A stretch of 64,000 nt of DNA from Eledone cirrhosa (GCA_964016885.1 OZ024743.1:355570001-355634000), one strand, 5' to 3'; counted from the first letter of the stretch, positions 857 through 46,282 are shown. Program-made: numbers and translations. The notes: generated by a model not told the origin, from the sequence alone.

Positions 857-3800
857 ATGTCTAATGATAAAATCTCATACCGGATCGGCCGTCACCCGGT
901 TAAAAAAGGGCCACGTCCCTCAGAGAGGAACCAGACTGGGGTCGAAAAATCAGCCAATGGTTCAAACCTTCCCATCACTTCGGAGCTGGAGACCTCCCAT
1001 AACCGGAATACTCCTACTGTTGGCCCTCCATGCTCACCACCAAGAAATCCAAAGAAAAAGAGAGAAAAATTGTCAAGGGAAGATAATAAGGAATTCCTTG
1101 AGGCTTTCTACACTGCCATGTACTACCCATTAAATACATCGAATACAGAACAGACATATATCAACTGGTAAAAGAAACATCCCGAAAACAGAAGCTATAT
1201 TGACAGTAACAAACTAGCCAATATACGAAGAAATATTGTAAGAAAAAAGTTACTAACTGATATAGAAATTGATCAGATCAAGCTATTAGCACAAAGTCAG
1301 GGAAGGGAAAATGAAACATGTGTCAGTGAAAACGAGGTGAATTGTAACACTTCGAATCCCAGGGTTGGGGCGGAATCACTGGCAACAGAACAAATTAAGG
1401 AAAGGATCGAAAAAGTGGAGGGAGTGCATGCTCAAGATGAAACTCCAAATGAAAATAATGAGATCGTAAATGATAAAGAAATGAATGAGAATGAACTTGC
1501 CAACTTGAAGGATGAAATTATGATCGAATGGATGAAAATGAAAGAATCTGACATAGGGCAACGAGACACCCTCCCTAAGATCCAAAACTCCAAACAGAAC
1601 CAAAAGATAATACACAAGACTATCATAATTCTCAAAAACATTATCATCACAAACAAACGAAACATTACTGATTTAAATCATCTCTATTATGCATCGGCTA
1701 AAGTCACCACTCACTTATGTGGAGTGAAGATGAAAAAACAAAGGAATTCCCACAAGAAATCTACTTGGCAAGAGAACATCAATCGCCAAATAAACCTTCT
1801 CCGATCTGACATAGAAATTTTAACAAACTATAAAGTAGGTGAACATGTTAAACAAACTAAACTTAGAAAATTGAAAAGAAAGTACAGTATAAAATCAACA
1901 AGTGACATAGACATGCTGATAGAAATAATCAAGCAAAAAGTGTCGGCCAAAGCTGCTCGTATAAGGCGTTTTGAAAAACGATCTAGATTCTATAAGGACA
2001 ATAATATGTTCAAAAACAACCAAAGAAACTTCTACAGAAAAATTGGTAAGTCAACAATAACTTCTAAATCAATACCACCCAAGGAGGAAGTGCAAGAATT
2101 CTGGGAAAAGATCTGGGCCGAAGAAAAAGTTCATAACATACATGCCCCATGGATAGACAGACAAATGAAAGATACAGATCACCTTGAGGAACAAATATGG
2201 GAAAATATAACAGTTGAACAGTTGCGCTTGGCTCTAAGAAAAACCAGCAAATGGAAATCGCCAGGAAAAGACAAAATACAAAATGTTTGGATAAATGCCT
2301 TCACAGAGTCTCATGAGCTGTTAGCCCAACTTTACAATGAAATAGTTAAGGAGCCAGAAAAGATACCATCATGGCTAGTTAACGGCATTACATTCCTGCT
2401 TCTGAAGAATGATGAGACAAACAATCCCAAAAATTACAGACCGATAACTTGCTTGACCACAATGTATAAAATGTTAACATCAGTCCTAACTGAATACACA
2501 TATGACCACCTGATAACAAATGACCTATTTCCCATTGAGCAGAAAAGGTGTAAACGAGGCTCATATGGCTGTAAGGATCAGCGTTTGGTTAACAAAATGA
2601 TACTGGAAGATTGTCATAATAGACACAAAAATCTATCGATTGCTTGGATAGATTATAAAAAAGCATTCGATAGTTTGCCACACAGTTGGATTGAAAAATG
2701 TTTAGAGATTTTCAAAATATCCCCCGTTGTCAGGAGATTTTTGTCATTCAGTATGAAGACATGGAAAACGACACTCCTTTTGAATAGTGAAACAAAATCA
2801 CTGGAAGCTGGAGAAGTTAATATTAATTGTGGAATTTTTCAGGGTGACTCTTTATCACCGCTTTTATTCTGCATCGCACTTATACCATTAAGTAAAATGC
2901 TCAATGAAACAAAACATGGATATAAAGTCTATGACAAAACCATTAATCACCTGTTCTACATGGATGACCTGAAACTATTTGCAAAAAATGATGAACAATT
3001 GCAAGGGCTATTATCCACTGTGCAGCAGTTCAGTGATGACATTAAAATGGAGTTTGGACTAGATAAATGCGACAAAGCAACGTTCACCAGAGGAAAGCTG
3101 CTGAAGAGTTCAGACATTAATCTTGATCGGGGGAACGTGATAAAAGAACTTGATCAAGAAAAAACTTACAAATATCTAGGTGTTTGTGAAGGAGACGGAA
3201 TCAAGCACTCGACAATGAGGGAAAGGATAAGGAAGGAATGTTACCGCAGAGTAAGAGCAATCTTAAGAACGGAATTGAATGCAAGGAATAGGATCGATGC
3301 CATAAAGACGCTTGCCATACCAGTAGTAACCTACAGTTACAATGTCATCAACTGGTCAAGCACAGAGATCCGTAGGCTCGATACAAAAATTCGAAAATTC
3401 TTAACCATGCACAGAATGCATCACCCTAAGGCAGATATAGATAGAATATATCTCCCTAGGAAAGAAGGAGGACGTGGGTTAATCCAGTTAGACATTGCGT
3501 TGAAAACTGCAACAATTGGATTATCTACATATCTAAGGGAATCACATGATTGGATGATCAAACTCGTTTTGAAACACGAAAGCATCAAAAGATCATATTC
3601 CATTACAAAAGATGCACAAAGATACAGTAATGGACTACAAATTTCAGAAGTCCCATTTACTGCTGAAATGTAAAACACATAAAAAGCAAAGCAGGTAAAA
3701 GTAACTGCAAAGAAAGAACTGCTACAGAAACTGGCTAAGAAATGGCAAGAAAAGCCTCTGTATGGAAAATACCCAGAGCGAGCTAACAATCCTGATGTTG

Positions 3801-4494
3801 ACAAAACTTTAACCCATCAGTGGTTGGCATCCTCTGGACTGAAATTGGAGACTGAAGGACTGATTATATCAGCACAAGATCAGTGTCTGCCAACAAAAAT
3901 TACCAAGCCAACATAATAAAAAATGGGTGCCGTGTATGCAAAAAACAACCAGAGACCATTGACCATATAATTTCAATGTGCAGTCCTATAGCTCCAACCG
4001 AATACCTAAACAGGCATGACAGAGCTGCACAATACATACATTGGATAATGTGTAAGCATTTTGACCTGCCCCATCAAAAGAATTGGTGGGAGCATCAACC
4101 ACCTCCCATACTTGAAAAAGATCACATCTCAATCTTGTGGAACTTTAGCATCCAAACAGACCGAAAAATAGATGCAAATAGACCTGGTATAATATTGAAG
4201 GACTTTCAAAAGAGGGTATGCCTGCTAATTGATATGTCTATTCCAATAGACAAGAATGTATCTATAAAAACATTTGAAAAATTGAGCAAGTATAAGGACC
4301 TGGAGATAGAAATTGGAAAAATGTGGAAATTGAGAACTAAAACAATACCAGTGGTTGTAGGCGCTCTGGGAATGATACCTAAGGGGTCTAATGATTACAT
4401 ATCGCAAATCCCAGGAAACCCGCGTATAGGAGAAATACAAAAGATAGTACTAATGGGAACTGCCCATATACTAAGGAAGATTCTGTCAATATAA
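857..4494 (+). pseudogene. Dong/R4 single ORF (RT-RLE), interrupted
   Basis: ORFs 857-1171, 1337-3673 (same frame) and 3883-4494. In-frame stops at 1169 and 3671, frameshift near 3885. The RLE 'RPD' motif reads RPG. Confidence 0.88.

Positions 4495-4638: not shown

Positions 4639-4681
<43 letters not shown>
4639..4681. repeat. (TAA)n microsatellite, Dong tail and Tx1 junction
   Basis: Pure AAT repeats between the Dong 3' end and the Tx1-a 3' end. Confidence 0.95.
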
Positions 4682-4683
<2 letters not shown>

Positions 4684-4931
4684 TTTCTTTATTAACCACA
4701 AGGGTTTACATAAAGTAGACATTAAGGACAGTGCAGGACAATGCAGGACGGTACAAATGGGCATTTCTGCGTGTAAAAAACAAAAACAGAGGATGTAACA
4801 AAAAATAACAATGAAAAATTCCCCAATAGGGGGGAGACTTCGGAGGGACATTTGTGGAGAAAGCCCAGTAAAAAGCCACAATGACCCTGACCACCAAGGC
4901 AAGTGCCCTCTCCCAGTTTTCCACCTTTAAT

Positions 4932-7900
4932 TTACAGATATATGCTCAGAGTAGGCACATTCACTCGGGCCATTCTTGCTTCTCTCACCCATTTTTCAAC
5001 AAAATGCTGGGAAGAGAGCACTTCCCTCTCTACTCTGATTTTCCTTTTCAAATGAAATTTGAAAAAGTCAATCAGAGCATCACCGAAGAGGTAAGTGCTC
5101 GTCTTCAGCCCGTTCGAACGTGTCCACCATACTATCTCTTTCGCCATGGCCACCAGACAGATAAAAACTGCCTGCCCTTCGCGGCTAAAGGAGGAGGGCG
5201 GGGCAATCCTCACGATGGACTCAGATGATAGCCGGATCCGTACTAAACGCGACAGCAGGTGTTCGACATAAACCCACAAGTCAGCAGTTTTCGGACACTG
5301 GACGAGTGCGTGCAGGACGGTTTCGTCACCCTGCGCGCATCTCGGACATTCCCGGCTGACGGCACCTCCATGCCTGTAGAGTTTATCCCGAACTGGCAAG
5401 GCTCCTCGGTAGCACTGCCAGGCCAGAGATTTCTGGAAGTTGTCCATTGGCCCTGGCCCGAAAGTTCTTCCGAAGAGATTGGCTAGTTGATTTTCGTCGA
5501 CGCCTAGAGTTTCCCCAAGTACGTTGTCGCTCTTCCCCTCCACTAATCCTCTATAGAACGCCGAGGTAGAGTTTCCACCGATCACATTGCCCGATTGGGC
5601 GAGGGCTGTGAGCGCCTGAAGACATTCCAGTCTCCAGGCGCTCCCTCTCGGTCTTCGCTTGACCCAGGACTGCAGCTCCGTCAAGGAAACGAGCTGGGGA
5701 AATACGTGTCTAGCAAACGGCGACCACACCTGATCACCGTCGAGGAAGAGGTGGAGATGTCGTAGCCTGAGCGCGTGCCTGCGCATCATCAGCCACGGCA
5801 TGCCCAGCCCTCCACGTAGCGGGTGTTGACAACAGATGGACCGCCTGACCATCGGAGCACGTCCCTTCCACAAAAAGCGAAAGAGCAAACGCTCCAGCGC
5901 AGTCAGGCGAGGCTTAGGACAGGGTACGACGGTCAGGCGGTAGCAGATGACAGACGCGATGTACGCGTTAGCCACCTCCGCTCGACCTTTCAGGGATAGC
6001 TTTCTCTCCGCCCATTTCTGGGTGAGAGAAGCCACCCTGCTCGTCACCTCGTCCCAGTTTTTGTCCGTCTGGAGGTCCGGACCGAACCAGACCCCTAGCA
6101 ATTTAACCGGTCCGTCCGTTCAGCGTCCGACGACGCTGTTGGACGGCATGGACCTGCCTCTCCAGGTGCCGAGCTGCAGGCCCACTGACTTTTCCTGGTT
6201 GATCATTGCTCCTGTCACCGCTTCGTATTCTCTTAGTGTAGTGCCGATCGCCTCGATGTGTTTGGCGTTCGACACCACTACGGTGACATCGTCCGCATAT
6301 GCTGACACGGATCTTCCGCATCCTAGTTCGCGCGGGACTCCCCTCAACGTCTCCAGTTTGTGCAGTAATGGCTCGAGAGTCAATACGTACAAGAGGGACG
6401 AGAGGGGACATCATTGGCGGACCGAGCGCATGATGTTGAACGGTTCCGACAGGTGACCGTTCACTCTCACCACAGAGCAGATGTCGCTGTGCATGGCAGC
6501 GATCCAGCCTCTGAAGACGGGCCCAAAGCCAGCCGCCCTCAGGACTGCCGCTAGGTAACGATGGTCGACCCTATCGAAAGATTTCGACTGATCTAAATTG
6601 ATCAAGGACCCACCCGTGCCAGGTTCCTTAGCTACCCTCTCTATGATGTATCGCATGAGGTGGAGGTTGTCGTGGATGGATCTGTCGGGAATGGCGCATG
6701 TCTGCGCCTCTCCCACCAGACCACCAACGACAAGCGCCAACCTCTTTGCTAGCACCTTGGCCAAAATCTTGAACTTTGTGTTTAGCAGAGTTATGGGCCG
6801 GAAATTATCTATGTTATCCCCCTTGTTCGGATTCTTTCTCAGCAGTGCCACCGCTCCTCGGCTCACAGAACTGGGAATTCTCCCGTTCTGTTGCCAGTTG
6901 CAGTAGACGTCCGCCAAGAGGCCTCCGAACAAGTCTGGCATCTGTACGTAAAGTTCATAGGGCAGACCATCCAAACCAGGCGATTTACCCCTTGTGCAGC
7001 CAGTCATTGCCTCCCTTACTTCAGCGGCTGTTATCGGCTTTTCGCAACACTTCGCCTCAGTGGCCGAGAGCCGCGGCAGTCCGTCGAGGTAGACACTAAA
7101 GTCCATCCCTCTACCCGGCCCACCGCTGCCCCCGAACAGCTGAGCGAAGTGTCGCTGAAAAGCTTCACACATTTTCCCGGGATCGAGTAGCATGCGCCCG
7201 TCGTGGTCCACCAAAGACCGGATCGTGGCTTTGTTGCCACGACGCGCCTCCGCCACTCGGGCCCATTGAACGGCTTTCGTCCCCTCGTGTCTGAGAGCAC
7301 GCACCCTTGCTCTGACAACGCAGCCTTCGTGCTTTGCATTGAAGAATTGGTCACGGGCCAATTTCGCCGCAAGCACGTCGGTCGCAATGCCTTTGCTAAG
7401 CGCCTCGTCTAATTTTCTAACTAGTTCTCCCTCTGCTCTATTTTTCTCTGTTGCTAAAGTCTTACTAAACCTAATCGATTCTATTCCAATCGCTCTTTTC
7501 AGAGCAAACCACCACTTGTTGTTGACGATGGCCCCTGTCAACGCCCGCTTAACTAGTTCGCTAATCCGGTCTCTGTAGGCCTTGCGCGCTGGTAAGGACG
7601 CGTTTAGCTTCCAGTAGCCGGGTCCTCGTCTATGAAGCCTATCTAAGTCAAGCACACAGATCACGAATTTGTGGTCCATGTAGCTGACTATCTTGAATTG
7701 TGGACAGCCTATGCTAGACCTATCTATTTCCCTACAAAATACTCTATCTAGATATGATCTGGATGACCCTATGCGATTTGTCCAAGTCCACATTGGCACA
7801 TTCGGGAAATCCAATCGGTCCCTGTCAGACAGTTCAAAACGCCTGAGCAGGTTGGTGAGGCTCTTGCACCCTCCACCCCTATCCGCTAATCCCACACAGT

Positions 7901-8351
7901 CCCAGCGTGCATCTAAGATCCCGTTCCAGTCGCCCACTAACACTAAAGAGCGGGACGTTCCAAGAAAGGTCTCCAGACGCCGGAAGAAATCAGGCCGCCC
8001 TGCTCCTGTCGGGGCATAGACGGCCACTAGCCTGAAAGCTTGCCGGTCTCCGCTGGTCACGTCCAGCACCACCAGCTTACCCTCTGGGTCCAGGAAGATG
8101 GCCCGTATGGCCAGATCCAAACCTCTCCGAAAAAGCACAGCAACTCCTCCCCCCGATCCAGGACGGCTGGGAGATGCGTACACATCGTAGCCGCCGAAGA
8201 TCGGTGCGAAGGCCCGTGCTTCGGAGATTCTGGTCTCGCTGATGGCCACTACATCTATGTTTAGTGACCTGAGGTCGTTGAGCAGGTGACCCTGCTTCCA
8301 TGACGACCCCAAGCCACGCGCATTTATGCTGCCTATTCTGAGTGAGGTCAT
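4932..8351 (-). pseudogene. Tx1-a ORF2 (APE endonuclease + reverse transcriptase), frameshifted
   Basis: APE motifs SINARGL, ISET, VYAP, GDWN, SYLDRV, MDHK; RT motifs FRPITLLN, LDQSKSFDRV, YADD; breaks near 6411 and 6103-6120. Confidence 0.9.
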
Positions 8352-8386
8352 ATTTAAAATAGAGTGGAAAAGATGGGAAAGACCAC

Positions 8387-10480
8387 TTACCGTACTTTTG
8401 GTAGAGGAGGGATGGTTTTTACATCCCTTTTCACCTGATCGTCTGGTGAAGGGACCGTTGAATCGTCCCTTCGGCTGGTCGTCGGCTCTTCTAAGAGAAT
8501 GTCTGAGTATACTCTTCGATTGATGGTTCCTCCTAGGTCCCTGAAATCACCAACTGCGTTGGGGAATTTCGTTTTAATATTTGTGTATTGTTTCTGTGCT
8601 ATTTTTAGCAGTCTTATGTTAGTTGGCGTTTTGATTGGTGCTGGTATTATGTAGTCCTGTTGTGAAATGTCTGTGTGTTCAATTATGTAAGTCATTAGTT
8701 TCTTGTTGTGTGTATTTATTGCCGTGCATTTGTTTTTCTGGGGGTGGGGTGTGGTTCTGCTATTTTCTTGTCGTTGTTGCTGGGTGTGTGTGTTTTGTTG
8801 TTGTGTTTGCGATGTTGGTGCTTGTGGTGGTGGTGTTGAAGGTGTTGTTGGCGGTGGGGTTGTCGCCGGTGGTGATGGTGGTGCTAGTGTGCGTGGTGAT
8901 GGTGTTGGTGGTGTTGCTGCTGTGGGTCTCTTTGCAGTAGACTTTACCCTTTTCTCATTTCTTTCCTCCCTTTTCAAAGGCGACGATGCGCTGCTTCTGC
9001 GTTTGTGCCTTCTTACGACCTTTTGCCATCCCTCTCCCACCTCACACTCCATGTCTGATTCTGTGAGGTCGGGGAGGGGTACCAGCTCCACTCTTTCACT
9101 TGTTGTTGGTGGTGATGTTTGCACTGGAGTCTCTGTTGCCGCTGCATTTGGTATTGCTGTTGTTGTTGTTAATATTTCCACTGCTGCTGCTGTTTTTGAT
9201 TTCCGTGGCGTGGGTATGGGTGCCACGGACCTATCGTTCCTGGTTGCCGCTTGTCCTGTTGCTGGTAGCCGTGGAGCCGGATTCGGAAGGAGGGGGGTTT
9301 TCTCCTTTCTCAGGGTCTTCTCGTTGCAGAAGGCCCTGAGGTGAGTCTTCGATCCACAGCGAAAGCATTTCGGGCGTTTGCCCTCAACACTTATGGGCAG
9401 TTGAGTGCCGTTATCGAAGTCTATCACATCCGGGATAGCTTCGATGCACTCCTGGTTGGTTTGGATTAGCATCTCAATGGAGGTGCCGACCCAATCTTCT
9501 CTTACTTTTTTCTGTACTTGCAGTACAGTTGTTTTGTCCTCGATTCCGACGAGGACAGACGCGGCCAGCCAAGAAGGGGACATTCCGTGGGGGGGGGGGG
9601 CGTGGTTCAGTTTGACCCTCACAATTTTTTGCCCGCAGTAGGAGGGCACCAACACCATTTCCTCGCTCCTTAGGGTCACTACGGATTGGGCCTTTGCCTC
9701 CTGGGGTGTGGAAAAAAGTACGTCTACGGTGGCATATTTTTTGCCTCGGGTGATGTGTGTTTTCCGCTGCCACACAGACCCCAAGGCTTTTTGTATTTGG
9801 GCCTCTGCGGCTCTTTCCACCCTACGGGATTTTGTACTTACTGTACGGTACGTGACCGTACAGTGCTGTTGGGTTTCGAAAAATTTTTCCGCTGCCTTGC
9901 AGATTGCTCGGTGTCCATTCTTTGTCACCATCTTCTTCGCTTCCTCTAATTCCTCATTTGTTATGAGGATTGTTTCCAAGTTTTTCGCAATACCTGCAAA
10001 TGAGATTGGTTTTTCTTTGCTGCTGTTGTTGTCGTCAGAGCTTTTGTTGTTGCTGCAGGTACTACGACTACTGCCTTCGCCGCTGTTGCTGTGGTTGTTG
10101 TTGGTGTTGCTGCTGCTAATGCTGTTGTTGTTTATGCTGCTGGTGATGCTGTTGCGGCTGCTACTGTTGTTTTCATTGTCACTGTTGCTGTTGTTATTAC
10201 GGCTGCTACTGCTATTATTCCTGACGTCAGACGAATGAACTGGGTTTTCGTATTTCCCGCACACCTGTTTCGTCGCTGTCGTCGTCGTCGTGGAGAAACC
10301 TTGCACGCTTTGCACGAGACTTTTCTTTTCTTTCGTCGCTTGCGAAAGAGAAGGGAGGGAGAGAGACACATTTAAAGAAGGGAGGGAGAGAGACAATCTT
10401 CTCTCTGCTGTAGTGATGATTGAGGAAGAAGAAGACGGAATGAGTGGGAGTGACCTATGCAAATTCTTTTTCGTAGCCAT
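8387..10480 (-). CDS. Tx1-a ORF1 (gag-like nucleic-acid-binding protein), open
   Basis: First ATG at 10480; Asn/Ser low-complexity N-terminus, ISFA motif, CCHC knuckle CFRCGSKTHLRAFC, Pro/Thr-rich C-terminal region. Confidence 0.85.
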   Translation of the reverse strand: MATKKNLHRSLPLIPSSSSSIITTAERRLSLSLPSLNVSLSLPSLSQATKEKKSLVQSVQGFSTTTTTATKQVCGKYENPVHSSDVRNNSSSSRNNNSNSDNENNSSSRNSITSSINNNSISSSNTNNNHSNSGEGSSRSTCSNNKSSDDNNSSKEKPISFAGIAKNLETILITNEELEEAKKMVTKNGHRAICKAAEKFFETQQHCTVTYRTVSTKSRRVERAAEAQIQKALGSVWQRKTHITRGKKYATVDVLFSTPQEAKAQSVVTLRSEEMVLVPSYCGQKIVRVKLNHAPPPHGMSPSWLAASVLVGIEDKTTVLQVQKKVREDWVGTSIEMLIQTNQECIEAIPDVIDFDNGTQLPISVEGKRPKCFRCGSKTHLRAFCNEKTLRKEKTPLLPNPAPRLPATGQAATRNDRSVAPIPTPRKSKTAAAVEILTTTTAIPNAAATETPVQTSPPTTSERVELVPLPDLTESDMECEVGEGWQKVVRRHKRRSSASSPLKREERNEKRVKSTAKRPTAATPPTPSPRTLAPPSPPATTPPPTTPSTPPPQAPTSQTQQQNTHTQQQRQENSRTTPHPQKNKCTAINTHNKKLMTYIIEHTDISQQDYIIPAPIKTPTNIRLLKIAQKQYTNIKTKFPNAVGDFRDLGGTINRRVYSDILLEEPTTSRRDDSTVPSPDDQVKRDVKTIPPLPKVR

Positions 10481-10697
10481 GTTGACTTTTTTGTTTAAAA
10501 TAAATATTGGGTACAAAACCCCAATAAGCAGTTATTTAACCCCGAAGGGCCAAATAACGGGCAGAAAGACCCCTCTCACGAGGAGGAGGGTGTTTTTGTC
10601 TACAAGTTGGGTCTAAGTTTTAAACAATTTACAATTGTTAAAGCGTTCAAAATTTACAGTACCTTACAGAGCCGAGCCTCCGTCAACCATAGTATTC

Positions 10698-10735
<38 letters not shown>

Positions 10736-10736
<1 letters not shown>

Positions 10737-13807: not shown

Positions 13808-13883
13808 ATATTTTAGCTCTGTTCCTCGCATATACCACTCTCCTCTTATCTGTTTGATAGAACTTTCCAACACTATATATATA

Positions 13884-16009
13884 TGAACTTGCTCCTTTCA
13901 AGGCGAACCTTCTTGACTTAGTCGCTAACATTTCCTTTCGCAAACACCCTAACACCTTTCAAACTAAACTCAGAAATGATATTAAGAAATTTAGATCTTC
14001 TAATAACAGTTTCGTTCTTTCCGACAAAACTAATAATATTTACGAAGTCGACAACACCACTTTCTGCCACCTGGCCCATAACGCTATTACTTTCAAATAT
14101 AAGAAAGCTAACCCTATGGCCTACTACGATATTAATACAGAAGCCAAAGAACTTGCCGCCGCCCTTAAGGTAGATAAGAAGCTACAATCTCTAGCTAAGC
14201 GGGAGGCGTTCCTCACCCTGAAAGATCACAAGGTAGACTTTACTTCTAACCCCACATGTAGACTAATAAACCCGGCACGCACAGGTATGGGACTAGTCAG
14301 TAAGGCCATACTTAGAAACATAGTTAAGACCATTAGGGCCAAGTCCAACCTGCCCCAGTGGGCGAACAGCAACTCCGTAATTAAGTGGTTTAACTCCTTC
14401 AAATCCAAAAAAGCGAAGTTCACACAGTTCGACATTGTTGATTTTTACCCGTCGATCTCAGAGACCCTGTTAAACAAAGAGTTGAACTTCGCTACCACTT
14501 ACACCACCGTCGATGATTTAGACAGGGAAATCATCGCTCACTGTCGAAAAACCCTCCTCTTCAACAACGGAGTAGCCTGGGCAAAAAAGTCAACAACTTC
14601 AGACCTATTCGACGTCTTCATGGGATCCGTTTGACAGTGCTGACGTATGCGACTTGGTTGGCCTATTTATTTTCCCGGACTTCCACACGGGAATATACCG
14701 CGACGATTGACTGAACCTATCGAGCCATAAAAGTGGTCACGACCTCGACCGGTTTAAAAAAGACTTAGCTTCAGCCTTCAATGAGTTAGGACTTAGGATA
14801 ACAGTAGCTACCAACCTCTCTAGCGTAGATTTCTTAGACATTAATTTAGACCTTCGCACACACACCTACAGACCCTTCCATAAGCTAAACGAAAAACTCC
14901 TTTACATTCACAAGGACTCATGCCACCCTCCCACTGTTTTTAGAAACTTCGTAAATAATATCAGTACTAGAATCTCAAACCTCTCCTCTAATAAGGCTAT
15001 CTTTGACAGGGCGGCACCCTACTATAACACGGCGTTAGCTAACAGCGGCTTCTCGCAACCTATCACTTACTCTCCCACTAACAACAACAGCATTAAGAAA
15101 AGAAAGCGTAACAATAGACAAACTATCTGGTTCTCTCCTCCCTTCTCACTCAACGTTAAAACCAATGTAGGCAAACAATTTCTAGCCCTCTTAGATAGAC
15201 ACTTTCCCATAGGTCATAAATACCGCTCCATCTTTAACCGACACAAAGTAAAACTAGGATACTCCTGCGCTAAGAACATGAAGGCCCACATCACCAACAG
15301 CCCTAAGAGCAACACCCCACCACGGTGCTCTTGCCGTAAGCCCGAAGCTTGTCCCCTTCAACAGCAATGCAGCACACCCGCTGAAGTTTATGAAGCTGTG
15401 GTCACTTCCAACCGACCAAATCAACCACAGGAGTTCAAATCCTATGTGGGTATGGCGGAGGGCCGATATAAGGAAGGCTTCCTGAACCACCAGTCGACCT
15501 TTAGGTACCCGGACAGACATTCATCCATGAAACTCACGAGCCACGTATGGTCCCTCAAGGACTCAAGTATAGACTGCTCCATTCAATGGAAAACCATCAC
15601 TAAGTCCAAACCATACGCAAGGGGCAATCCGTCGAGTGGACTATGTATTGATGAACGAATAAATATTCTAAAGAGATTACGCAATAGTGATTGCCTAAAC
15701 ACGAGAAATGAATTCTTCACACCTTGTCCACACGTCTGAAAACACATCTTACATAACTACAAAGCTCCGGATTGAATTACAACAACATCCTAATTTTCTT
15801 ATCAACTAGAAACTTTCGGACTTTCGCAGTTATCTCTCTTACACTTCTCGCAAGCAATTTAGTATTGCTTGTGTGAAGTGATCGTTTCTGCGCATGCGCG
15901 TTCGTACGGTTGTCCTTCCTGTTCTGTATAACCATGTCCATTACGAGCTGAGGATCCGCTAAGGTGAAACAATTGTTCTCGGTATGGTGAATTAACTGTT
16001 ATGTAACCA

Positions 16010-19314: not shown

Positions 19315-22300
19315 ATTTCTTTATTAGCCACAGCGGCACAAAAGAAGGGGACAAATACAAAGGAAGAAGTTTACATACAATAAAAACGTGTAAAATACTA
19401 TCACAAATACAATTTAAAAGTTAATCGATTTTCCCTAATAGGGGGAGACATTACATATGAGTAACACATACCCCCGAAAAAAATGTGCAACCCTCATCTC
19501 CAGGAGTACGAAGAGTTTGTACCCCTTTCCTCTTCTCCTCCTTTTCCTCAACCTACAGGCTGATATAGAAGAAGGCCCATTCACTCGAGCCATTCTCGCC
19601 ACTTTCATCCACCTTTCATAAAACTTGCTGAGGTACAGCACATCTCTCTTCATCCTGATTCTTCTTCTAAAGTGGTATTTGAAAAAAAGAATCAGTTGTT
19701 GGCCGGAGAGAAAGGTGTCTGACCTCAGCCCTTTCAACCTTGTCCACCATACAACCTCTTTCGCCATAGGCTATCGCACAAAGGAAAACCGCCTCTCCTT
19801 CGTTTTTGAAGGAGGGTGGCGGTTTGATCATGACAATGGACTTGGTGGTCAAGCGGATTGGTCCCACCCGCGACAATAGTCGTTCTACATAGCCCCACAG
19901 GTCAGTAACGCCCGGGCAGTGTATGAATGCGTGCGCGGCGGTTTCTTCATCTCGCACGTACCTCGGACAGATCTTTTTTGCAGGGTCCCTGCCCGGGCGC
20001 CCATGTCTGTAGGGCTTGTCTCGAACTGGTAGAGCTCCTCGGTAGCGCTGCCAGGCCAGGGACTTTTAGAAGTTGTCCATCGGTCCCGGGCGGAAGGTCC
20101 TACCGAACAGACTGGCCAGGTCGTCTTCCTCTACGCCTAGAGTTTCACCAAGCGAGTCGTCGCTCTTGCTGCGGATCAACCCTCTATAGAATGACGAAGT
20201 GGAGTCTCCACTGAACGCCGGGTCCGACTGCCAGAGGACTGTGAGCGCCTGAGCACATTCGATGTGCCAGTCGCGCATTTTCCTCGGTTTTTGCTTGACC
20301 CAGGACTGCAGCTCGGTCAGCGAGACGAGTCATGGGAAGGCTCGCCCCACGAACGGGGCCCACATCGGTTGTCCGGTGAGGAATACGTAGAGATGCCGCA
20401 GCCTGAGCGCGTGCTTGCGCATCGTCAGCCACGGCATCCCCAACCCTCCGTTGGAAGGGTGTTCGCAGCAGATGGATCTTCTCACCAAAGGAGCCCGCCT
20501 CTTCCAAAGGAGCGTTTTGGCTGGACAAGGCACGACGGTCAAGCGGTAGTAGATGGCGGACGCTATAAAAGTGTTCGCCACCTCCGCTCGACCTTTCAAG
20601 GATAGTTTGCGCTCGGCCCACTTCTGGGTGAGTGCAAACACCTTGACCGTCACCTCGTTCCAGTTCTTCTCCACCTGGAGGTCCGGACCAAACCAGACCC
20701 CGAGCAGCTTTACCAGTCCTTCCGTCCAGCGTCCGACGACGCCATCGGAAGGCATCGGTTTGCCTCTCCACGATCTGAATTGCAAACCATAGGCCGACGC
20801 CGCTTTCCGCAGTCCCGGTTCCAGAAGGATGCCCTGCAATAGCTCCAACTTCCGCAGTAGTGGCTCGAGAGTCAGTAAGTACAGACCGTCGAGACCTGGA
20901 GATTCGCGTTTGCCGCATTGTCTCAGCGCGTCCCCTATCTCAGCGGCTGAAATCGGCTTTTCGCAGAACTTCCCCTCGCTGTCCGAGAGTCGCGGTAGGC
21001 TCTCGAAGTATGGACCGAAATCCATAGCCCCTCCCGGCGCGCCGCCCTGCCCTAACAGTTGAGCAAAGTGTCGCTGAAAGGCCGCACACATCTGCTTCGG
21101 CTCACGTATCACGCGTCCGTCTTGGTCCTTCAAAGACCGAATCGTGGACTTGTTGCCAATTTTTGCCTCCGTCACTCGGGCCGGCTAACAGCTTTGACTC
21201 CCACGTTTCCCAGAGCACGTATTTTGCTTCTGATAACGCAGCCCTCGTGCTTTGCGTCGAAGAACTGGTCCAAGGCCGTTCTCGTTGCTAGCACGCTGGC
21301 TACGATGCCACTTCTAATTGCCTCTTCTACTTTATCTACCAGTTCCTTCTCGGTCCTATTTCTATCTAACGCTAATTCTTTACTAAAAACTAACGAATCT
21401 AATCTAACTGCCCTCTTGAGAGAGTACCACCATCTGTTGTTGACAATGTCCTCTGTCAAGTGCTGTTTAACTAAAGTGCTAATCCGTCTACTGAAGGCTT
21501 TGCATGTCGGTAACGACAAGTTCAGCTTCCAGTAGCCGGGTCCTTCTCTATGGGTTCTATCAAGGTTGACCATGCAGGTCACTAGTTTGTGATCTGAATA
21601 GGAACCATGAACATTTGTGGACAGCATAGCATGTCCCTATCCTTATTTCTAACTAGAACCCTATCTAGGTACGATCTAGATGTTCCGCTGCCATTAGTCC
21701 ACGTCCACAGTGGCACAGTCGGAACATCTAGTCGATATCTATCGGCCAGGTCAAATCGGCCGATTAACTGTTTGAGGATGTTACACCCCTCTTTATCGGG
21801 ACATGCTCCCACATAGTCCCAACGTGCATCTAGGATTCCATTCCAGTCCCCCACTAAAAGCAAGGAGCGGGACGTTCCCAGAAAAGTTTCTAAACGTTTG
21901 AAGAAGTCTGGCCGCGTTGTCCCGGATGGGGCATATACGGCCACCAGCCTGAAGGCTCCACCTTCACTACCGTCAACGTCTAGGACCACCATTCGACCCC
22001 CCGGGTTCAGATGTACCGTCTGTGTTACGAGGCCCAGGTGTTTCCGCAGCAAAACGGCAACCCCCCCCCCCCCCCCGGCTGACAGAGGGATGCGTAGATC
22101 TCAAAGTCATCGAAGATGGGGGCCAGCTGTCGCTCGCTGTGGATCCTGGACTCGCAAATGGTTACTACATTCATACTATGCGACCTGAGGTCGTTTAAGA
22201 GTTTGCCCTGTTTCCAGGGCATCCCCAGGCCGCGTACATTCACACATCCAACTCTTATATTGGCCATGTTGGTTCTGAAAAGTTAAAAGAAGAGAAGAAA

Positions 22301-23080
22301 ACACTCACCTCTTCGTCTCTCGGGAATCAGGCCGCACGGTTTCCATGGGGGTGTTAGAGGAGTTGTCTGGGTGTGTGGTGGTTTCCGGCGGGGTGGGGAC
22401 GAAGATGTTTGGTGGGGTGGGGGAGTCTGGGGTGAGGGTGGGGAAACTTTTTAAAAGGACGCGGTTAATGGGTTTAACACAGGGATTACCCACGTCCTTA
22501 GGAAAGTTTTCCTTTAAAGACTTATAGGTGTCCGTAGGGACTCTAATCGTCTTTAAATTAGGTTTGTCTACACAGTTTGAAAAAGTTTTCCCTTCGGTTT
22601 TCATGGAAGGGTCGTTGGAGATAACCTCCATTAAAGTTTTGTTTTTACTGTTTATGTATGTGTAATGTTCTTGTTGTGTTGCGGTGGTTTTTCTCTGCTG
22701 TTCTTGTGGGAGCTTTCGTTTTGCTGTAGGTGTTTGTGTTTGGAGTGATGTCGTGGTTTTGTTTTCGGGACGGGGGGGGGGGTTGTTTGTAATGTTTGTG
22801 TTGTTTGTGTTGGTGGTTGTATGTTTGTAGTGATGTTTGTTGTTTTTTTGTTCTTGTGGTGTCTTTTCTTCTTTCTTTTCGAACGGGAGAGGCTCTCCCT
22901 CGTCGTCACTTGGTGATGATGTGGGGGCCTCGTCCGTTGTGGTGTCTTTGTTATTTGGAAGGGGTATGTTTTGGGGAGCTGTTGTGTTTGTGGGTGTTTT
23001 TGCAGTGGTTTTAGGGGAGTGGGTTTGGTGGGACTGTGCTTGCAGGTTGGTTTGTTGTTCTTATTTTGGTTATGTTTGCG

Positions 23081-25529: not shown

Positions 25530-26262
25530 TATATCAAATAAAAAATACGAGGAAATAGTAGGCAACAATATACGTATTTTTTCTTCAAAGTCCTGACTGC
25601 ATTTTCGCCGAATCCGTTTGCAGCAATTTATGCACCACAAAAGTGCACCATCGCTGTGAGGTTGATAATGCTTATCAAGAGACTCCTCAAAAAGCATTGT
25701 TTCTTGACGCGTTCGTAACAAGTGAGAAATTCTCGAGAGGCGAAGAGAGAAATTAACACGTGATACATGGTCACAGAAGGGTAGTAAAGGTGGACAATAA
25801 GTGAGTACCGTATTTGCTAGAAAAAGCCGACAACACACGCCTGGTTAACTCGACTATAGGAGAGTTTGGGACAATATAATAATAATATACACACACACAT
25901 ATTCATATGTATATGTGTGTGTGTGATGTCCGCCTTAGCAAGTTTTGCTCGATGACCGAAAGTGTTAAAATAATCAAAAGTATTAGAACAATTCAATAAT
26001 CCAAGCTATTTATCAAATTAAAAATATGAGGAAATAATAGAAAAAAATATACCTATTTTTTCTTCAAAGTCCCCACTGCAGTTTCGCCGAATCAGTTTGC
26101 AGCAATTTATGTACTATAGAAGTGCACCATCACTGTGAGGTTGATAAGGTTTATCAAGAGACCCCTCAAAAGTCGCCTATGGTCGAATTAACCAGGTGTG
26201 TCCTAACTGCTTTTTCTAGCAAATACAGTACACGCCTATTGTCCACCTTTACTGCCCGTGAC
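25530..26262. repeat. Duplicated unclassified repeat with one direct and one inverted segment
   Basis: 25533-25692 is repeated directly at ~26012-26172; 25770-25860 recurs inverted at ~26176-26262. Confidence 0.7.
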
Positions 26263-26264
26263 TC

Positions 26265-26820
26265 TCGGTGACTGATGGGGAGTGCTGCGAAAGGTCGATA
26301 ATAGCAGCCGAAATTCGGGAAGCCCTGGCCAATTGTACAATGAGGAAATCTCCCGGTTCGGATGAGTTTTACGTAAATATGCTAGGCTTGTACTCCAATC
26401 TACTTGAAGCAGTCTACTGCGACTGGCAACAGAAGGGGGTATTTCAAGTTCTGTGAGTCGAAGCATAGTAACACTAATGATAGACAAGAACAAAAAGGAC
26501 GTCATTGATAATTTCTGATCCATAACTCTGCTAAACACAGAATTTAAGATTTTAGCCAAGGTGCCAGCAATGATGATGGCGCTTGTTGTCCAGACCCTAG
26601 TAGGGGAAGCACGAACGTGTGCAATCCCGTCCATGTCCATGCAACACAACTTCCATCCCATGCGATACATCATAGAGAAAGTAGGGAATAAACCTGGCTT
26701 TGATAGTGTTCGGAAATTGAGGTGGTCGGCAATTTCTTAGAGGAATATGAAAAGTTAACAGGAACAATAATCAATCCAGAAAAATGGGTGGGTTGAGAGG
26801 TAGGCACCTGGAGAGGCAAA
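26265..26820 (+). pseudogene. Tx1 RT relic
   Basis: ECCERSIIAAEIREAL..KSPG, ITLLNTEFKILAK and GTWRGK match Tx1 ORF2 elsewhere in the window. Confidence 0.75.
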
Positions 26821-32094: not shown

Positions 32095-32241
32095 GTTAAA
32101 ATACTGGAGCGTGTTGGAGTTAAACACCCTCTTCGTATTATAGAAATAACAGTAAAAGGTATAGCTCTATGTAGTTAAAGAGAGCCGAAAAATTAAGAAA
32201 GTAAAACAAAGAAGCCTTCAATACATCAAAAGTCTTTATTA

Positions 32242-32279
32242 GCCGACAATGTTTCGTCCTATTAAGGACTCATCAGGGC
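32242..32279 (-). ncRNA. Minimal hammerhead ribozyme (Naiad 3' end)
   Basis: Reverse complement reads GCC-CTGATGA-GTCC TTAATA GGAC-GAAA-CATTG-TC^GGC. Confidence 0.88.
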
Positions 32280-34075
32280 AATTAAAACAACAAGAAGTAA
32301 TGTCGGCAGATAGAAGCCGGAAGCTCCGAAGAATATGGAGTGTACATACACTAAAGTATTGCAAGATTATGGGTAAAAATATATAATAAAAATAATAAAA
32401 ATATATAATAAAAATTACTAAGGATGTATATAACATTAAGAACCATATTACAAATATAGTCCAAAGCAAAAAAAACCTAGAGCTAAACAAAGGTGGTTAT
32501 ATAGAGCAGGAATTATATATAATACAATGTAATATAATATATTATACCTTTACCAATATTAAAATTACAATAAAAATCAAAAGGTACAATATGCATATGT
32601 ATATATGTACGCACACGTACACACACATACACATACAACAATACACATATCCATCTTCAACTGCACAAATTAAACCTTATTAAGAGTTTGAATATAAAAA
32701 TAAGCATGATAGGAATGAAAATAATAATAATAATAATACTAATACATCTACCCAATATACATGAGGTAATAATATGATATAATTATAAGTAGCACATATA
32801 ATAAATAATAAACAATACAATTATATACTATATAATATAATATAATAGAATAGATAATCTCCGGTTAATTTACACAAACAATATAGATGTCACAATAATA
32901 CTATAATAATAATATACTAACATTTATAATATACAATATACTAACATTTATAATATACAATATATAATGGTACTCAAGTTAACAAATCAATTCATACTGG
33001 GTTACAGAGTAGGTGAGGAAAAATAAATTGTACAATACCCTAAAAATTATGATGGTACAAAAAAATACAAACATCTTACATGATATATAAAGTTTAACAT
33101 ATCATAATGTTACATATAATCAACGGTAAGTAATAAGGATCAATATTACAAATAAAAAATACAATATAATATAATATATTATATAAAATAAATTAACATA
33201 ATATAATATATAATTACTTATAATTACAAGGTTGGTGAACAGATATGCATGTGGGTGAGTGAGTAAGGGCCAGACAGTAAATATAATGCACAGTAGTATT
33301 ACAAATAAAATATAAAATATAAAATATAGAATAAAATAAATAAATAGAATCAACCGGAAATTAAAAAACAAAAACAAACGTATACATTTAGGTCTCACAT
33401 GCAGTTAAGTAAAAACTAAGGAAACAACCCCTGTAAATGACTCGAAAACCCTATTTGGTAAATTAATATTAAAAATATTTACAATATCCAATAAGGCAGT
33501 ATAATATTAGCTATAGTTTAAGTAATTAAAGTTTATAAACGTTAATATTTCGTTACAAATATTTACAAAAAGGAATGAAATTTTTTACTATCATATACAT
33601 AACGATATCTAAAAAACTGACTTAAGCAGAATTAAGGTAGGCTAATAGGCACAGAAATGAAGAAATATATGGAGGATGCATAGGGGCATAAAATCGTAGT
33701 CGATATACTATATTAAATAATAGAAAGGAGCGTAAAAGAGGGGGGTTTAGATATAATCATAGTCAATTTGGAGGGGTTGATAATAAGTTTATGTGCGCAT
33801 GGGGGGGGGGGTATCCAAAGAAGAATCCGAATAAAAATAAAAATAAAAATTAAAATAAAATAAAATAATTAGCGTAAAATATATAATCTTATATATATTC
33901 ATAAGGTGTTAATAGTGAAAATTTAATGCGTAAGAAGATAGATATGGTACAGTAGCCAAAAGATTATGAGAGCTAGAATAAAGAGTCATCAAAAACCAAT
34001 GATAATAATGATGATAATAATAATGTTGGTAAACAAAAGAACCTAAACTAAAAAATAAGTAATGGAATATATCAG

Positions 34076-36083
34076 CTAATGGGTACAATTTGTTCTACTA
34101 GAACGTTTAGGTTTATAATAAAAGTATGAATTAGAAATAGCGTGGGGGCAAGAAGAGAATATCTCAGACTTTCTATTAAGTAAGGATACGCTAGAGAAAA
34201 TTATAGAGTGTGTCTCGAGGATACAGAGATTACAAAACTTAGTATGTGTAGAAAGGTGGTTAGAGCGTGCTACTAAACGCCAGTTAAGGCTAAATGGTAT
34301 ATTAGCTCCGTTAAGATCCCAGATATAATGTGCTAAAGAAGTAGAATTCTTAAACTTAACATGTTTGAAATTAGAGATATGAGAGTTAAACCTAGTCTTA
34401 AAAGTGTTAGATGTAGAGCCTATATAAGTTCTATTAGAGGAATTAGTTATAACGTCGCAAGCATAGACAATGTTCTTAGAAGGGCAGTTACCGTTTAAAG
34501 GGCAGTTAGCACTCACTCTACAATTGCACTTCCGGGTGTTATTGGTTGGCTCAAGTGGTGATGCATTACACGTAGGATTGCTATTAGATAAGGTCTGTTC
34601 TGGTGGTAATGCATTTCCAGATCTGTTCAGACTAGTAGTATGTAGAGAGGAGAATCCATCCCTAATTTTCCTATTCTTAGTGCTAGCTAAATGAGAACTA
34701 ATATTAGGGGTGGTAGAGAATGAAAGTTTAATAACATTTTTATTAAAAATACTATGGTATTTATGAGAAGGGGGGAAATTTTTCTCTAAGATAGAGAAGA
34801 AAGATCTAGGGATATTAGTTGATACTTCCTGATTATATGGCGGGTTAAAATAAGTATTTAATCGCCTTCTATTTTTATTCTTACCGACTCTACCATTATC
34901 AAATATCCCACCATCGAGACTAGGGTTACTACAAGGATTAGTTAAAACCGCATTCATAGAATCAGCCAAAATTTCATTAAGTCTATTACAGTTTCTACCT
35001 CCAGTAGATCTGCTGCTGTCCGGAATCCCATCAAAAGGATTAGGGCCAATGATAGGATCAGTAGGAGCAACATTATTAGAATAAGATCCAGCAAAACCAT
35101 CACCAATGAGTGAGCGCACAGGGGGTTCAACATGTTTCCTAGAGGTATTATATTCACTATTACGAGTCCCGTGGGTTAACTTATGGATGGATTCAGATAC
35201 ACCTATATAATTTTTACGGTTACTATGTTTCCTACTCCCATTCATGGCCATGTTATGTGATATTATGTTATTATTATTAAAAGTAAGCGGAGACTTTCTA
35301 AGGTTACTATTATTATAATGTATTTTACTAGAGTAACCGGAATTTGCTAGGGCATTATTATAGTACTCCGCATGTTCATTAAATGTTCCTACGTCCTTAG
35401 AGAGTGTGGAAATCCTATTAGATACACCCTTAATTATAGAGCTTATCATAGACTTGGGGTGGTTAGAATTGGGACTAACATAAGAAAGTATTTCATTAGG
35501 CTTATGGAAGGGTTTAAAACTATTAGTGACCAAGTCCAAAGTCACATCTAAAAAGTTAACCGCTCTATCATTGCTATCTATCGTGATCGAAAGGTTATAG
35601 CTTTTAAAAAACTTATAAAGCTTCTTCTAATTATGTTCTACATTGTTGGTGCTCGAGTTAATTACAAACAATGCATCATCACGATATAGTCCGCCTATAA
35701 GTTGCGGGAAGGTAGCATATAGTTCATTAAGGAGGAACAACCCAACAAGATCAGTAACCTGGGCCGAATCACTCGAACCCATTGTAACGTCGAAATTATT
35801 GGGCGTGTTTTTACGGGTCCAAAATGTGTCCTCAAATTTAATAATAGTTTTACGGGCTGCTAGTATAAAATCTACCTGTGATCGTGTGAGGCTGGACACT
35901 CTCATGGCCAACATTAAAGCTTTATTGAGGAGGATGGGTGAAATTGATGTGTAGTAGGCATCAATATCGAATTGGATAAACTTATTAGATTCATGTCTAT
36001 TAATCCCAGAGAACCAATCTGTAACTTCCTTAGTGTTCCCCCATAGGTTAAAATTAACCTTATCCCTAACATCTGGTATAATA
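34076..36083 (-). pseudogene. Naiad RT-GIY-YIG ORF, 5'-truncated, one in-frame TAG at 35627
   Basis: QFDIDAYYTSI, DVTMGS, GLYRDD, NFLDVTLDL, YFNPPY, CNCRVSANCPLNGNC, IVYAC..TYIGST..FKTRFNSH. Confidence 0.88.
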
Positions 36084-36111
36084 ACATAATAATAACATAA
36101 TATCACATAAC

Positions 36112-37287
36112 ATGGCCATGAATGGGAGTAGGAAACATAGTAACCGTAAAAATTATATAGGTGTATCTGAATCCATCCATAAGTTAACCCACGGGACTCG
36201 TAATAGTGAATATAATACCTCTAGGAAACATGTTGAACCCCCTGTGCGCTCACTCATTGGTGATGGTTTTGCTGGATCTTATTCTAATAATGTTGCTCCT
36301 ACTGATCCTATCATTGGCCCTAATCCTTTTGATGGGATTCCGGACAGCAGCAGATCTACTGGAGGTAGAAACTGTAATAGACTTAATGAAATTTTGGCTG
36401 ATTCTATGAATGCGGTTTTAACTAATCCTTGTAGTAACCCTAGTCTCGATGGTGGGATATTTGATAATGGTAGAGTCGGTAAGAATAAAAATAGAAGGCG
36501 ATTAAATACTTATTTTAACCCGCCATATAATCAGGAAGTATCAACTAATATCCCTAGATCTTTCTTCTCTATCTTAGAGAAAAATTTCCCCCCTTCTCAT
36601 AAATACCATAGTATTTTTAATAAAAATGTTATTAAACTTTCATTCTCTACCACCCCTAATATTAGTTCTCATTTAGCTAGCACTAAGAATAGGAAAATTA
36701 GGGATGGATTCTCCTCTCTACATACTACTAGTCTGAACAGATCTGGAAATGCATTACCACCAGAACAGACCTTATCTAATAGCAATCCTACGTGTAATGC
36801 ATCACCACTTGAGCCAACCAATAACACCCGGAAGTGCAATTGTAGAGTGAGTGCTAACTGCCCTTTAAACGGTAACTGCCCTTCTAAGAACATTGTCTAT
36901 GCTTGCGACGTTATAACTAATTCCTCTAATAGAACTTATATAGGCTCTACATCTAACACTTTTAAGACTAGGTTTAACTCTCATATCTCTAATTTCAAAC
37001 ATGTTAAGTTTAAGAATTCTACTTCTTTAGCACATTATATCTGGGATCTTAACGGAGCTAATATACCATTTAGCCTTAACTGGCGTTTAGTAGCACGCTC
37101 TAACCACCTTTCTACACATACTAAGTTTTGTAATCTCTGTATCCTCGAGACACACTCTATAATTTTCTCTAGCGTATCCTTACTTAATAGAAAGTCTGAG
37201 ATATTCTCTTCTTGCCCCCACGCTATTTCTAATTCATACTTTTATTATAAACCTAAACGTTCTAGTAGAACAAATTGTACCCATTAG
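36112..37287 (+). CDS. Open ORF in the inverted arm encoding only the linker and GIY-YIG endonuclease (391 aa)
   Basis: Identical to the C-terminal 391 aa of 34076-35545 and starts at a native ATG; expression unknown. Confidence 0.5.
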   Translation: MAMNGSRKHSNRKNYIGVSESIHKLTHGTRNSEYNTSRKHVEPPVRSLIGDGFAGSYSNNVAPTDPIIGPNPFDGIPDSSRSTGGRNCNRLNEILADSMNAVLTNPCSNPSLDGGIFDNGRVGKNKNRRRLNTYFNPPYNQEVSTNIPRSFFSILEKNFPPSHKYHSIFNKNVIKLSFSTTPNISSHLASTKNRKIRDGFSSLHTTSLNRSGNALPPEQTLSNSNPTCNASPLEPTNNTRKCNCRVSANCPLNGNCPSKNIVYACDVITNSSNRTYIGSTSNTFKTRFNSHISNFKHVKFKNSTSLAHYIWDLNGANIPFSLNWRLVARSNHLSTHTKFCNLCILETHSIIFSSVSLLNRKSEIFSSCPHAISNSYFYYKPKRSSRTNCTH

Positions 37288-39110: not shown

Positions 39111-39148
39111 GCCCTGATGAGTCCTTAATAGGACGAAACATTGTCGGC
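39111..39148 (+). ncRNA. Minimal hammerhead ribozyme (inverted arm)
   Basis: GCC-CTGATGA-GTCC TTAATA GGAC-GAAA-CATTG-TC^GGC; canonical core and GUC cleavage site. Confidence 0.88.
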
Positions 39149-39200
39149 TAATAAAGACTTTTGATGTATTGAAGGCTTCTTTGTTTTACTTTCTTAATTT

Positions 39201-40732: not shown

Positions 40733-41161
40733 TTATCTATAAAAGGCAGATTGTTGTTGATGTGTGTGTGTCTGTGTGCATGTTCCATGTTTATACATTT
40801 GCACAATTTTGAACCGATTCGACTCGAAATCTGTAAGAATGTTGTAAATGGTCTATTTTAGGTCAATGACTATTTATTTCATTCAAACTCAGTATGTGTG
40901 TGCATGTGGATGTATGTATTGTGTGTGCGTGTGTGTGTGTGTGTGTGTGTATGTATGTGGGTATCTGGATGTATGCGTATGTGTATATATATATATATAT
41001 GCGTGTGTGTGTGTGTGTGTGTATATATATGTGTGTGTATGTGTGTATATATATGTGTGTGTGTGTGTGTGTGGATGTTTGTATGTGTGTATGTATATAT
41101 ATATGTGTGTGTGTATGTATGTGTGGGGGTGTGTGTGTGTGTGTATATATATATATGTGTG

Positions 41162-41196
<35 letters not shown>

Positions 41197-41235
41197 ATGT
41201 ATGTGTGTATCTGGATGTATGTGTATGTATATATA

Positions 41236-41288
<53 letters not shown>

Positions 41289-41361
41289 ATGTGTATATAT
41301 ATGTGTGTGTGTGTGTATGTGTGTATGTATATGTATGTATGTGTGTGTGTATGTATGTGTG

Positions 41362-41402
<41 letters not shown>

Positions 41403-41750
41403 GTATATGTATGTATGTGTGGATGAAGGTATGTGTGTATATATAGGTGTAAGTGCACTAAATCCTTTTCTATCACGCTCCACTCTCCTACCCATCACAG
41501 GAAGATATGTGTGTGTATATTGCTTCCACCCCCTCACTGACCAGCAGCTGGCGATTGCTAAATCTGACCTTTATAAAATAACCCACACCCCAAATAACTT
41601 CTCATTCACTACCAGAAAGGGACACAGCAGTCAACCTGTTGTTGCTACCTAGATGAAAACTGCTATGAAATCCCACAATGAATTTTATACTTGAATTTTC
41701 AAGTCTCAAATTTTAACTCTTCGTATTATTAATTTTTCTTAATATTAATC

Positions 41751-45883: not shown

Positions 45884-45922
<39 letters not shown>

Positions 45923-46092: not shown

Positions 46093-46184
<92 letters not shown>

Positions 46185-46223: not shown

Positions 46224-46282
<59 letters not shown>

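Follow-up and report, generated by a model that had tools for sequence, protein, structure and literature searches.

Predicted 5′ splice sites at the ORF1 stop of Tx1-like retrotransposons in Eledone cirrhosa and a likely splice origin of the Tx1-a family

We analyzed a 64,000-nucleotide (nt) stretch of the Eledone cirrhosa genome (GCA_964016885.1 OZ024743.1:355570001-355634000; hereafter, the window) that contains Tx1-a, a retrotransposon with a pair of open reading frames, called ORF1 and ORF2, and a related element, Tx1-b. All features of both elements lie on the minus strand, and positions are window coordinates. The GTAAGT that encloses the ORF1 stop codon of Tx1-a appears to be one case of a 5′ splice site (donor) found at the same place across the Tx1-like clade, and comparison of the copies inclines us, on balance, to the view that this donor has no regular partner in the nearby AG and that Tx1-a was created by splicing from one element into another.

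Conservation of the donor at the ORF1 stop

ORF1 of Tx1-a ends in GTA CGG TAA; the stop occupies 8389-8387, the first donor base (G+1) is 8390, and the first AG past the donor, a CAG at 8340-8338, delimits a stretch of 53 nt whose removal would join ORF1 in frame with ORF2. A first-pass annotation of the window had described this arrangement correctly, as well as its counterpart in Tx1-b, where AG/GTGAGT at 22308 and a CAG at 22277-22275 bound 34 nt, again in frame. The Tx1-a donor is no quirk of a single copy, because 1,234 of the 1,243 copies that match the exact 17-nt exon end continue with GT; the other nine are point mutants, with no deletions among them.

To place the motif in the wider clade, we used two patterns for the N-terminus of ORF2 (4,399 and 6,455 matches), chose representatives by eye from the first 100 matches of each, and retrieved 40 long loci; the set therefore comes mostly from contig C1 and is not a census. 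A donor stands 25-53 nt upstream of the ORF2 ATG in 20 of 21 representatives (19 strict motifs and one GTAATT), compared with a background of 0.28 strict motifs per kb in ORF2 (7 in 25 kb), which speaks against chance. We read these 20 donors as conservation from one shared ancestor rather than as 20 independent origins. The twenty-first representative, lineage k, is a single old copy that lacks both donor and spacer and is left out of the counts over 20 lineages below; we considered it as a spliced copy and rejected this, an imprecise deletion being likely.

All three stop codons and all three phases are found at the donor while G/GT RR GT persists, and the three main lineage groups are 67-74% identical in ORF2 and the 3′ untranslated region (UTR). 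In 20 of 20 lineages the ORF1 stop lies on the intron side. The spacer between the ORFs is 76-86% pyrimidine and leads into the ORF2 start context CCAACATGG or a sequence near it. When pairing was computed against the 5′ end of this genome's own U1, the donor was the best U1 match of the whole element in 16 of 18 scored lineages, ranking second in Tx1-a (-10.4 kcal/mol, among 307 GT sites) and seventh in lineage l. From these alignments we regard conservation of the donor across the Tx1-like clade as virtually certain. The annotation's suggestion of selection was borne out for the donor, and the pyrimidine-rich spacer is indeed common to the lineages, whereas phase turned out not to be shared. 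Its statement that the ORF1 C-termini of Tx1-a and Tx1-b cannot be aligned needs correction, as both contain a domain of the form NKxLM ... FP..VG ... NR and only the last ~30 residues differ. A metagenome scan returned one distant locus (26%), which is without such a donor junction.

Two lineages show variants at this site. In lineage n (L083:3060-3075), ATATCCTT follows the donor and is similar to a 5′ site of the minor spliceosome, with looser RTCCTT forms confined to p, g and c. In subfamily f (L098, L099) the frame passes the donor in phase 0 and reaches a stop at +28, and its first YAG is in frame by coincidence.

Hybrid subfamilies that break at the donor

Three hybrid subfamilies break at the donor boundary and resume after a CAG within the ORF1 tail of another lineage, 23-99 nt upstream of the recipient's own donor. 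Tx1-a is itself such a hybrid: it is 96% identical to lineage a2 from -83 onward with no match before, and its ORF1 upstream of 8433 is 87-93% identical to parent family p, up to the donor of p. At 8434 family p runs on with GTAAGTGA, and a2 has CAG preceding its equivalent of base 8433, a CAG that directly precedes the corresponding 42-nt segment in five of five a2 loci. Among 30 loci taken from 98 matches to p, the donor stands at the break in 24, and 22 combine an ORF1 87-93% like that of Tx1-a and an intact donor at the break with a distinct ORF2 (79-86%). The other two subfamilies emerged from b-type copies (629, a rough denominator). Here b-type exon ends without a following G gave 41 variants, 18 of which run into the last 23 nt of m-type ORF1, after the CAG of m, and four of which continue at a point 99 nt ahead of the hybrid's own donor, again after a CAG. 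The b/m hybrids carry a b-type ORF1 and an m-type ORF2. A splice-born element should end its 5′ part at the donor of an extant parent, as is seen for p and for the b-type parents, and should begin its 3′ part directly after a YAG of the other parent, which was a CAG in all three events. The hybrids were, in our judgment from these junctions, probably made by splicing.

Two further observations concern the b/m junction. A second b-type ORF1 is joined to the m tail at the identical point (L121, L137), through either a fourth splice event or later recombination, and one locus (G000:C1:174561229-174561290) has the hybrid-type ORF1 and m tail without the extra 23 nt, as an in-register form or by later loss.

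LINE-type retrotransposons exchange 5′ regions and ORF1 over evolution, which is usually credited to template switching. Switching of the reverse transcriptase (RT) on the shared AG, with a donor that is never spliced, could have made the present hybrids as well: each join shares only two bases, the AG, the first base after the Tx1-a join is uncertain, and these ORF1 tails do undergo in-register swaps as well as slippage deletions. We nevertheless consider this unlikely, given that all three breaks fall at an exon boundary and after a CAG, that a better 4-base match only 3 nt from the p/a2 join was left unused, and that the m acceptor is no hot spot of 5′ truncation (among 879 copies, ~8 show a visible truncation within 41 nt, with 122 inspected). 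A truncation hot spot that seemed to lie near the donor was an artefact of the search pattern.

Several points weigh against a splice origin. On the basis of local AG counts, three AG-guided breaks would all land on CAG with a probability of ~0.06, which is suggestive only. The search that yielded the b-type hybrids was restricted to breaks at the donor, and only the breakpoint of Tx1-a was located free of that restriction. Exon ends and acceptors both end in AG, which makes a 2-nt microhomology inseparable from splicing. In older forms of Tx1-a the base that follows the join is G, A or C (6 of 30 loci; 7 of 9 in another set), and the join is uncertain by one base because of this variation. 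Tx1-b and b2 differ by an ORF1 swap in register near -150 to -200 that bears no splice signature. Finally, no hybrids were present among 28 d-type or four a2-type variants, and lineage c gave no matches.

Proposed splicing between tandem units

The arrangement of the copies would provide opportunities for splicing between elements. Among 51 long loci, mixed tandems in head-to-tail order are frequent, with elements inserted into one another's microsatellite tails. The two partners of a hybrid have the same class of tail: (ATT)n in the case of p and a2, and (TCTA)n in that of b and m. Copies of m that are 5′-truncated stand directly behind (TCTA)n with their CAG intact, which would make them a ready acceptor. 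Two loci (G000:C1:55427399-55453334 and G000:C1:114789853-114808243) hold four or five Tx1-a units ~6 kb apart, via insertion into the (ATT)n tail.

In the mechanism we propose, ORF1 and ORF2 would ordinarily be made from unspliced RNA, ORF2 from its own AUG since its ATG is conserved, and the donor would likely bind U1 on this RNA without a regular splice partner. Rare read-through of RNA from unit 1 into unit 2 would allow the spliceosome to join the ORF1 end of unit 1 to the CAG just ahead of the donor of unit 2, and the ORF2 protein of unit 2 would retrotranspose the spliced product as a new hybrid. The new element would combine the promoter and ORF1 of unit 1 with the ORF2 of unit 2 and have the donor present again; a frame shift at the join would be tolerated because the ORF1 tail is of low complexity and a stop follows soon after. 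A broader proposal, that the donor is both a self-renewing joint for module exchange that founds autonomous families and an unspliced U1 element needed by the two-ORF RNA, is tentative and we think it rather doubtful in this full form.

The proposed 53-nt intron

The first-pass annotation had suggested that removal of the 53-nt stretch as an intron fuses ORF1 in frame to the endonuclease of ORF2, that phase 2 is conserved, and that selection keeps the fusion. Three features are compatible with this idea. Eight of the 20 lineages (a, a2, b, n, h, c, j and f) have their first AG in frame; the pyrimidine tract and CAG of Tx1-b are of textbook form; and any stretch offers AGs in several phases, so that a later in-frame AG could serve. 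In the remaining 12 lineages, however, the first AG is out of frame, the first YAG is in frame in only 6 of 20, close to chance, and five of the 20 have no YAG near the donor. With ORF1 frames fixed by protein homology, the donor is in phase 2 in 12 lineages, phase 1 in seven and phase 0 in one. The first AG gives no in-frame join in p, the parent of Tx1-a, or in the intact family d2, of which an intact copy (ORF1 of 640 amino acids (aa), ORF2 of 1,139 aa) is in phase 1. The implied introns would measure 28-61 nt across lineages, and in many of them the ORF2 ATG lies within the supposed intron and yet is retained. The frame match of Tx1-a has a simpler basis, because a stop that falls within GTAAG leaves phase 2 as the sole option and the AG sits in the AGA arginine codon of an xR(I/V)G motif, a codon that is CGA, CAA or AAA elsewhere.

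Genomic copies lacking the intron are missing from every family we examined, with none among 1,243 Tx1-a copies, 41 b-type, 28 d-type and four a2-type variants and 12 acceptor-side b matches; for d, c, b and a2 the searches took in exon ends with A, C or T as the next base, and joins to an exon starting with G were covered for Tx1-a only. Assembled contigs from four sequencing runs of unspecified type showed no joint of 8391 to 8337 among those displayed, which counts neither for nor against the intron. Since a fusion RNA would encode RT, it should itself be copied, and the Tx1-a count puts the spliced share below ~0.25%. For human L1, the accessible part of one account gives spliced RNAs as ~2% of full-length copies (PMC5860796). 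Judged as a U2-type intron, the interval 8390-8338 thus has a strong 5′ splice site and lacks a conserved acceptor, a conserved phase and intron-less retrocopies. We conclude from these comparisons that there is very probably no routine 53-nt fusion; neither the conserved phase-2 fusion nor the in-frame AG expected across lineages held up, and a fusion maintained by selection is highly improbable.

Other routes to a joint protein fared no better. A -1 frameshift into ORF2 was rejected, as the relevant frame of Tx1-a is open for 65 codons upstream but that of a2 is closed at the donor, and stop read-through from ORF1 was rejected because the two ORFs are out of frame with each other. Two protein searches for longer ORF1-ORF2 fusions, both weak, found none; a third returned 14 ORF2 relatives, one of them named to species (an Argonauta protein), and none of the eight examined had an ORF1 extension.

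What the donor may do in ordinary elements

A putative U1 binding site, which the first-pass annotation had named as an alternative, fits the junction better than the local fusion does. The strong complementarity to the U1 5′ end is what would be expected of a U1 element that works without splicing, and a role of this kind, in which the donor protects or stabilizes the two-ORF RNA, is a serious candidate that in our estimate falls just short of an even chance. Our lead idea for how U1 might act is protection from early cleavage, as in foamy virus. The distribution of AATAAA weighs against it: the motif is scarce in ORF2 downstream of the donor, the recurrent upstream one is an Asn-Lys codon pair, and no conserved poly(A) target site for U1 protection stands out in the lineages scored. 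AATAAA occurs 300-400 nt ahead of the ORF2 ATG in 9 of 19 representatives; in the window it lies inside ORF1 at the conserved Asn-Lys (8715-8720, minus strand).

The main rival for this everyday role is an ORF1-only mRNA, produced by regular splicing of the donor to a remote acceptor in or beyond the 3′ UTR, that would raise ORF1 over ORF2 protein. The spliced gag RNA of copia-type elements serves in this way. The constant intron-side position of the ORF1 stop would suit such an mRNA, and Tx1-a, a2 and l have a strong U-tract and CAG 74 nt before AATAAA, where the frame would close after 19 codons, while another YAG is present in the 3′ UTR of d, f, i and g. No acceptor column is common to all lineages, however, and 7 of 14 aligned lineages fall in neither 3′ UTR column. 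AG is also depleted in the 3′ UTR (12 seen and 43 expected, compared with 30 GA seen and 43 expected, in 12 lineages), a scarcity that fits selection against splicing within the element. None of 1,243 copies has a deletion from ORF1 to the 3′ UTR, even though the junction would lie ~90 nt from the 3′ end; an ORF1-only RNA without ORF2 might rarely be copied. Weighing both sides, we give routine distal splicing only a small chance. A common distal acceptor within ORF2 was rejected: the best column, at ~+2800 and present in 11 of 14 lineages, reflects a run of Phe-Tyr-Arg codons and was taken as a by-product.

The first-pass annotation had also offered a translation re-initiation signal as an alternative. 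In the form considered here, motif and tract would pair with the 3′ tail of 18S rRNA, and any resemblance to a donor would be fortuitous. Positions +2 to +22 do pair with the 18S tail of this genome (gene of ~2.87 kb) far better than shuffled sequences do in four lineages, a, a2, g and c (p ≤ 0.01), and the ORF2 start context is retained. In 14 of 18 lineages, however, the pairing is not significant, and re-initiation leaves the exon-side (A)G, the +1 G, the +5 G and the hybrid breaks at the exon boundary unexplained. As the sole explanation it is improbable, the 18S pairing supporting just four lineages, and re-initiation may instead be a second role of the tract.

The 3′ UTRs of nearly all lineages (window 4800-4830, minus strand; L068-L087) share three other features, a short hairpin-like motif of C-run, TATT and G-run, a U-rich, AG-poor stretch, and a TTTTAC(A/T)CG motif. 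These recurrent motifs are possible RT-recognition or 3′-end signals.

Layout of Tx1-a and other elements in the window

Tx1-a extends from ~10697 to 4639 with (ATT)n at both ends (Table 1). Its two ORFs, the APE, RT and zinc-finger domains of ORF2 (Pfam Exo_endo_phos, RVT_1 and zf-RVT), the (ATT)n target, the 3′ tail and the 5′-truncated copies are those of an APE-type non-LTR (long terminal repeat) retrotransposon. We provisionally place it in the L1/Tx1 group and call it Tx1-like, the label being taken from the first-pass annotation; its preference for a microsatellite target we take to be a Tx1 trait. ORF2 of the window copy is split into separate frames between 6411 and 6119, and other copies of the family are open for 1,139 aa. 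We call Tx1-a young because 29 other copies are ~98% identical to the window copy.

Table 1 Features of Tx1-a and of the Tx1-b junction in the window (a slash marks the exon boundary)
Feature	Position	Strand	Basis or remark
(ATT)n microsatellite, target site 5′ of Tx1-a	10698..10736	-	flank sequence
Tx1-a 5′ UTR	10481..10697	-	deduced from flanks and ORF1 ATG; tandem copies start identically after (ATT)n
Tx1-a ORF1, 697 aa, ATG 10480	8387..10480	-	no Pfam match
p/a2 hybrid junction (8434 last p-derived base, 8433 first a2-derived base)	8433..8434	-
a2-derived ORF1 tail segment, 43 nt (42 nt in a2)	8391..8433	-
Predicted 5′ splice site ACG/GTAAGTGG enclosing the ORF1 TAA	8383..8393	-	U1 pairing computed
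Spacer between the ORFs, rich in pyrimidine (82% C/T), with the ORF2 start context at its end	8352..8384	-
Proposed acceptor CAG, over ORF2 Leu4/Arg5 codons	8338..8340	-	not conserved as acceptor
Tx1-a ORF2 (APE endonuclease, RT, zf-RVT), ATG 8351	4932..8351	-	Pfam
CAG behind U-rich tract in 3′ UTR, candidate distal acceptor	4767..4769	-	seen in lineages a, a2 and l only
AATAAA (4693-4688) and (ATT)n tail of Tx1-a	4639..4693	-
Tx1-b junction: GAG/GTGAGTGT donor with G+1 22308, pyrimidine tract, CAG 22277-22275, ORF2 ATG 22267	22265..22311	-

The window also holds several other elements. A different RT element with frames of 833 and 212 aa (1172-4494, plus strand) lies tail to tail with Tx1-a. 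More decayed Tx1-like ORF2 fragments occur at 60660-61784 and 26251-26698 (both plus strand), the former starting just within ORF2 and hence having no ORF1/ORF2 junction. An open frame of 1,176 aa at 41950-45480 (plus strand) has a weak RVT_1 match and is likely an intact Penelope-like element; its C-terminus presumably resembles a GIY-YIG nuclease, and it is flanked by a 1.1-kb direct repeat (40891-41945 and 45853-46937). Another Penelope-like element lies in a 3.1-kb inverted duplication (98.9%) at 32190-39200, and a third at 13861-15739.

Significance and comparison with known systems

If our reading is correct, the spliceosome would provide a second, base-exact route of ORF1 exchange besides template switching, and both parents and the product, which has reached more than 1,200 copies in one case, are still found within one genome. 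That a donor has stayed at the ORF1 stop while ORF2 diverged by 30% points to an undescribed control of a two-ORF retrotransposon at the RNA level. The literature we covered, with subscription papers largely and Repbase Reports and supplements outside its scope, holds no account of a donor at a Tx1 ORF1 stop or of ORF1 exchange made by splicing.

Young L1-Tx1 families are also a feature of Octopus vulgaris, in which L1-Tx1 is listed as recently active with 13 families and 421 insertions; the likeness to the present genome is at the level of the group, and the accessible text of that account mentions neither ORF1 nor splicing (PMC13282606). Production of ORF2 from its own start on a two-ORF RNA, as we propose here, is described for L1 and SART1, in a paper whose accessible part has no mention of splicing or of a donor at the ORF1 stop (PMC3894237). 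For the everyday role of the donor, our model is the major splice donor of foamy virus, where U1 binding acts without splicing; according to the accessible part of that study, the effect there is suppression of a defined poly(A) site and was tested, whereas a role of this kind for the Tx1-like donor is proposed from sequence (PMC3694450).

Two systems bear on the hybrids. Spliced copies of human L1, or SpIREs, resemble them in that a donor carried by the element leaves spliced copies in the genome; as far as the accessible text goes, the L1 donor lies in the 5′ UTR, is explained by a RUNX3 site and is spliced within one element (PMC5860796), whereas that of Tx1-a lies at the ORF1 stop, the proposed splicing is between tandem units, and one product exceeds 1,200 copies. 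The other system comprises the subfamilies SVA_F1 and pt_SVA_D6, whose proposed origin is the splicing of an upstream exon to an acceptor within the element and amplification of the product; there, as for Tx1-a, a splice origin was deduced from a junction at the 3′ end of an exon. The SVA element is non-autonomous, and its donor belongs to an exon of a host gene (PMC6139936). In the Tx1-like hybrids, by comparison, donor and acceptor would both lie in autonomous elements of one clade, ORF1 would be exchanged, and the donor would be rebuilt.
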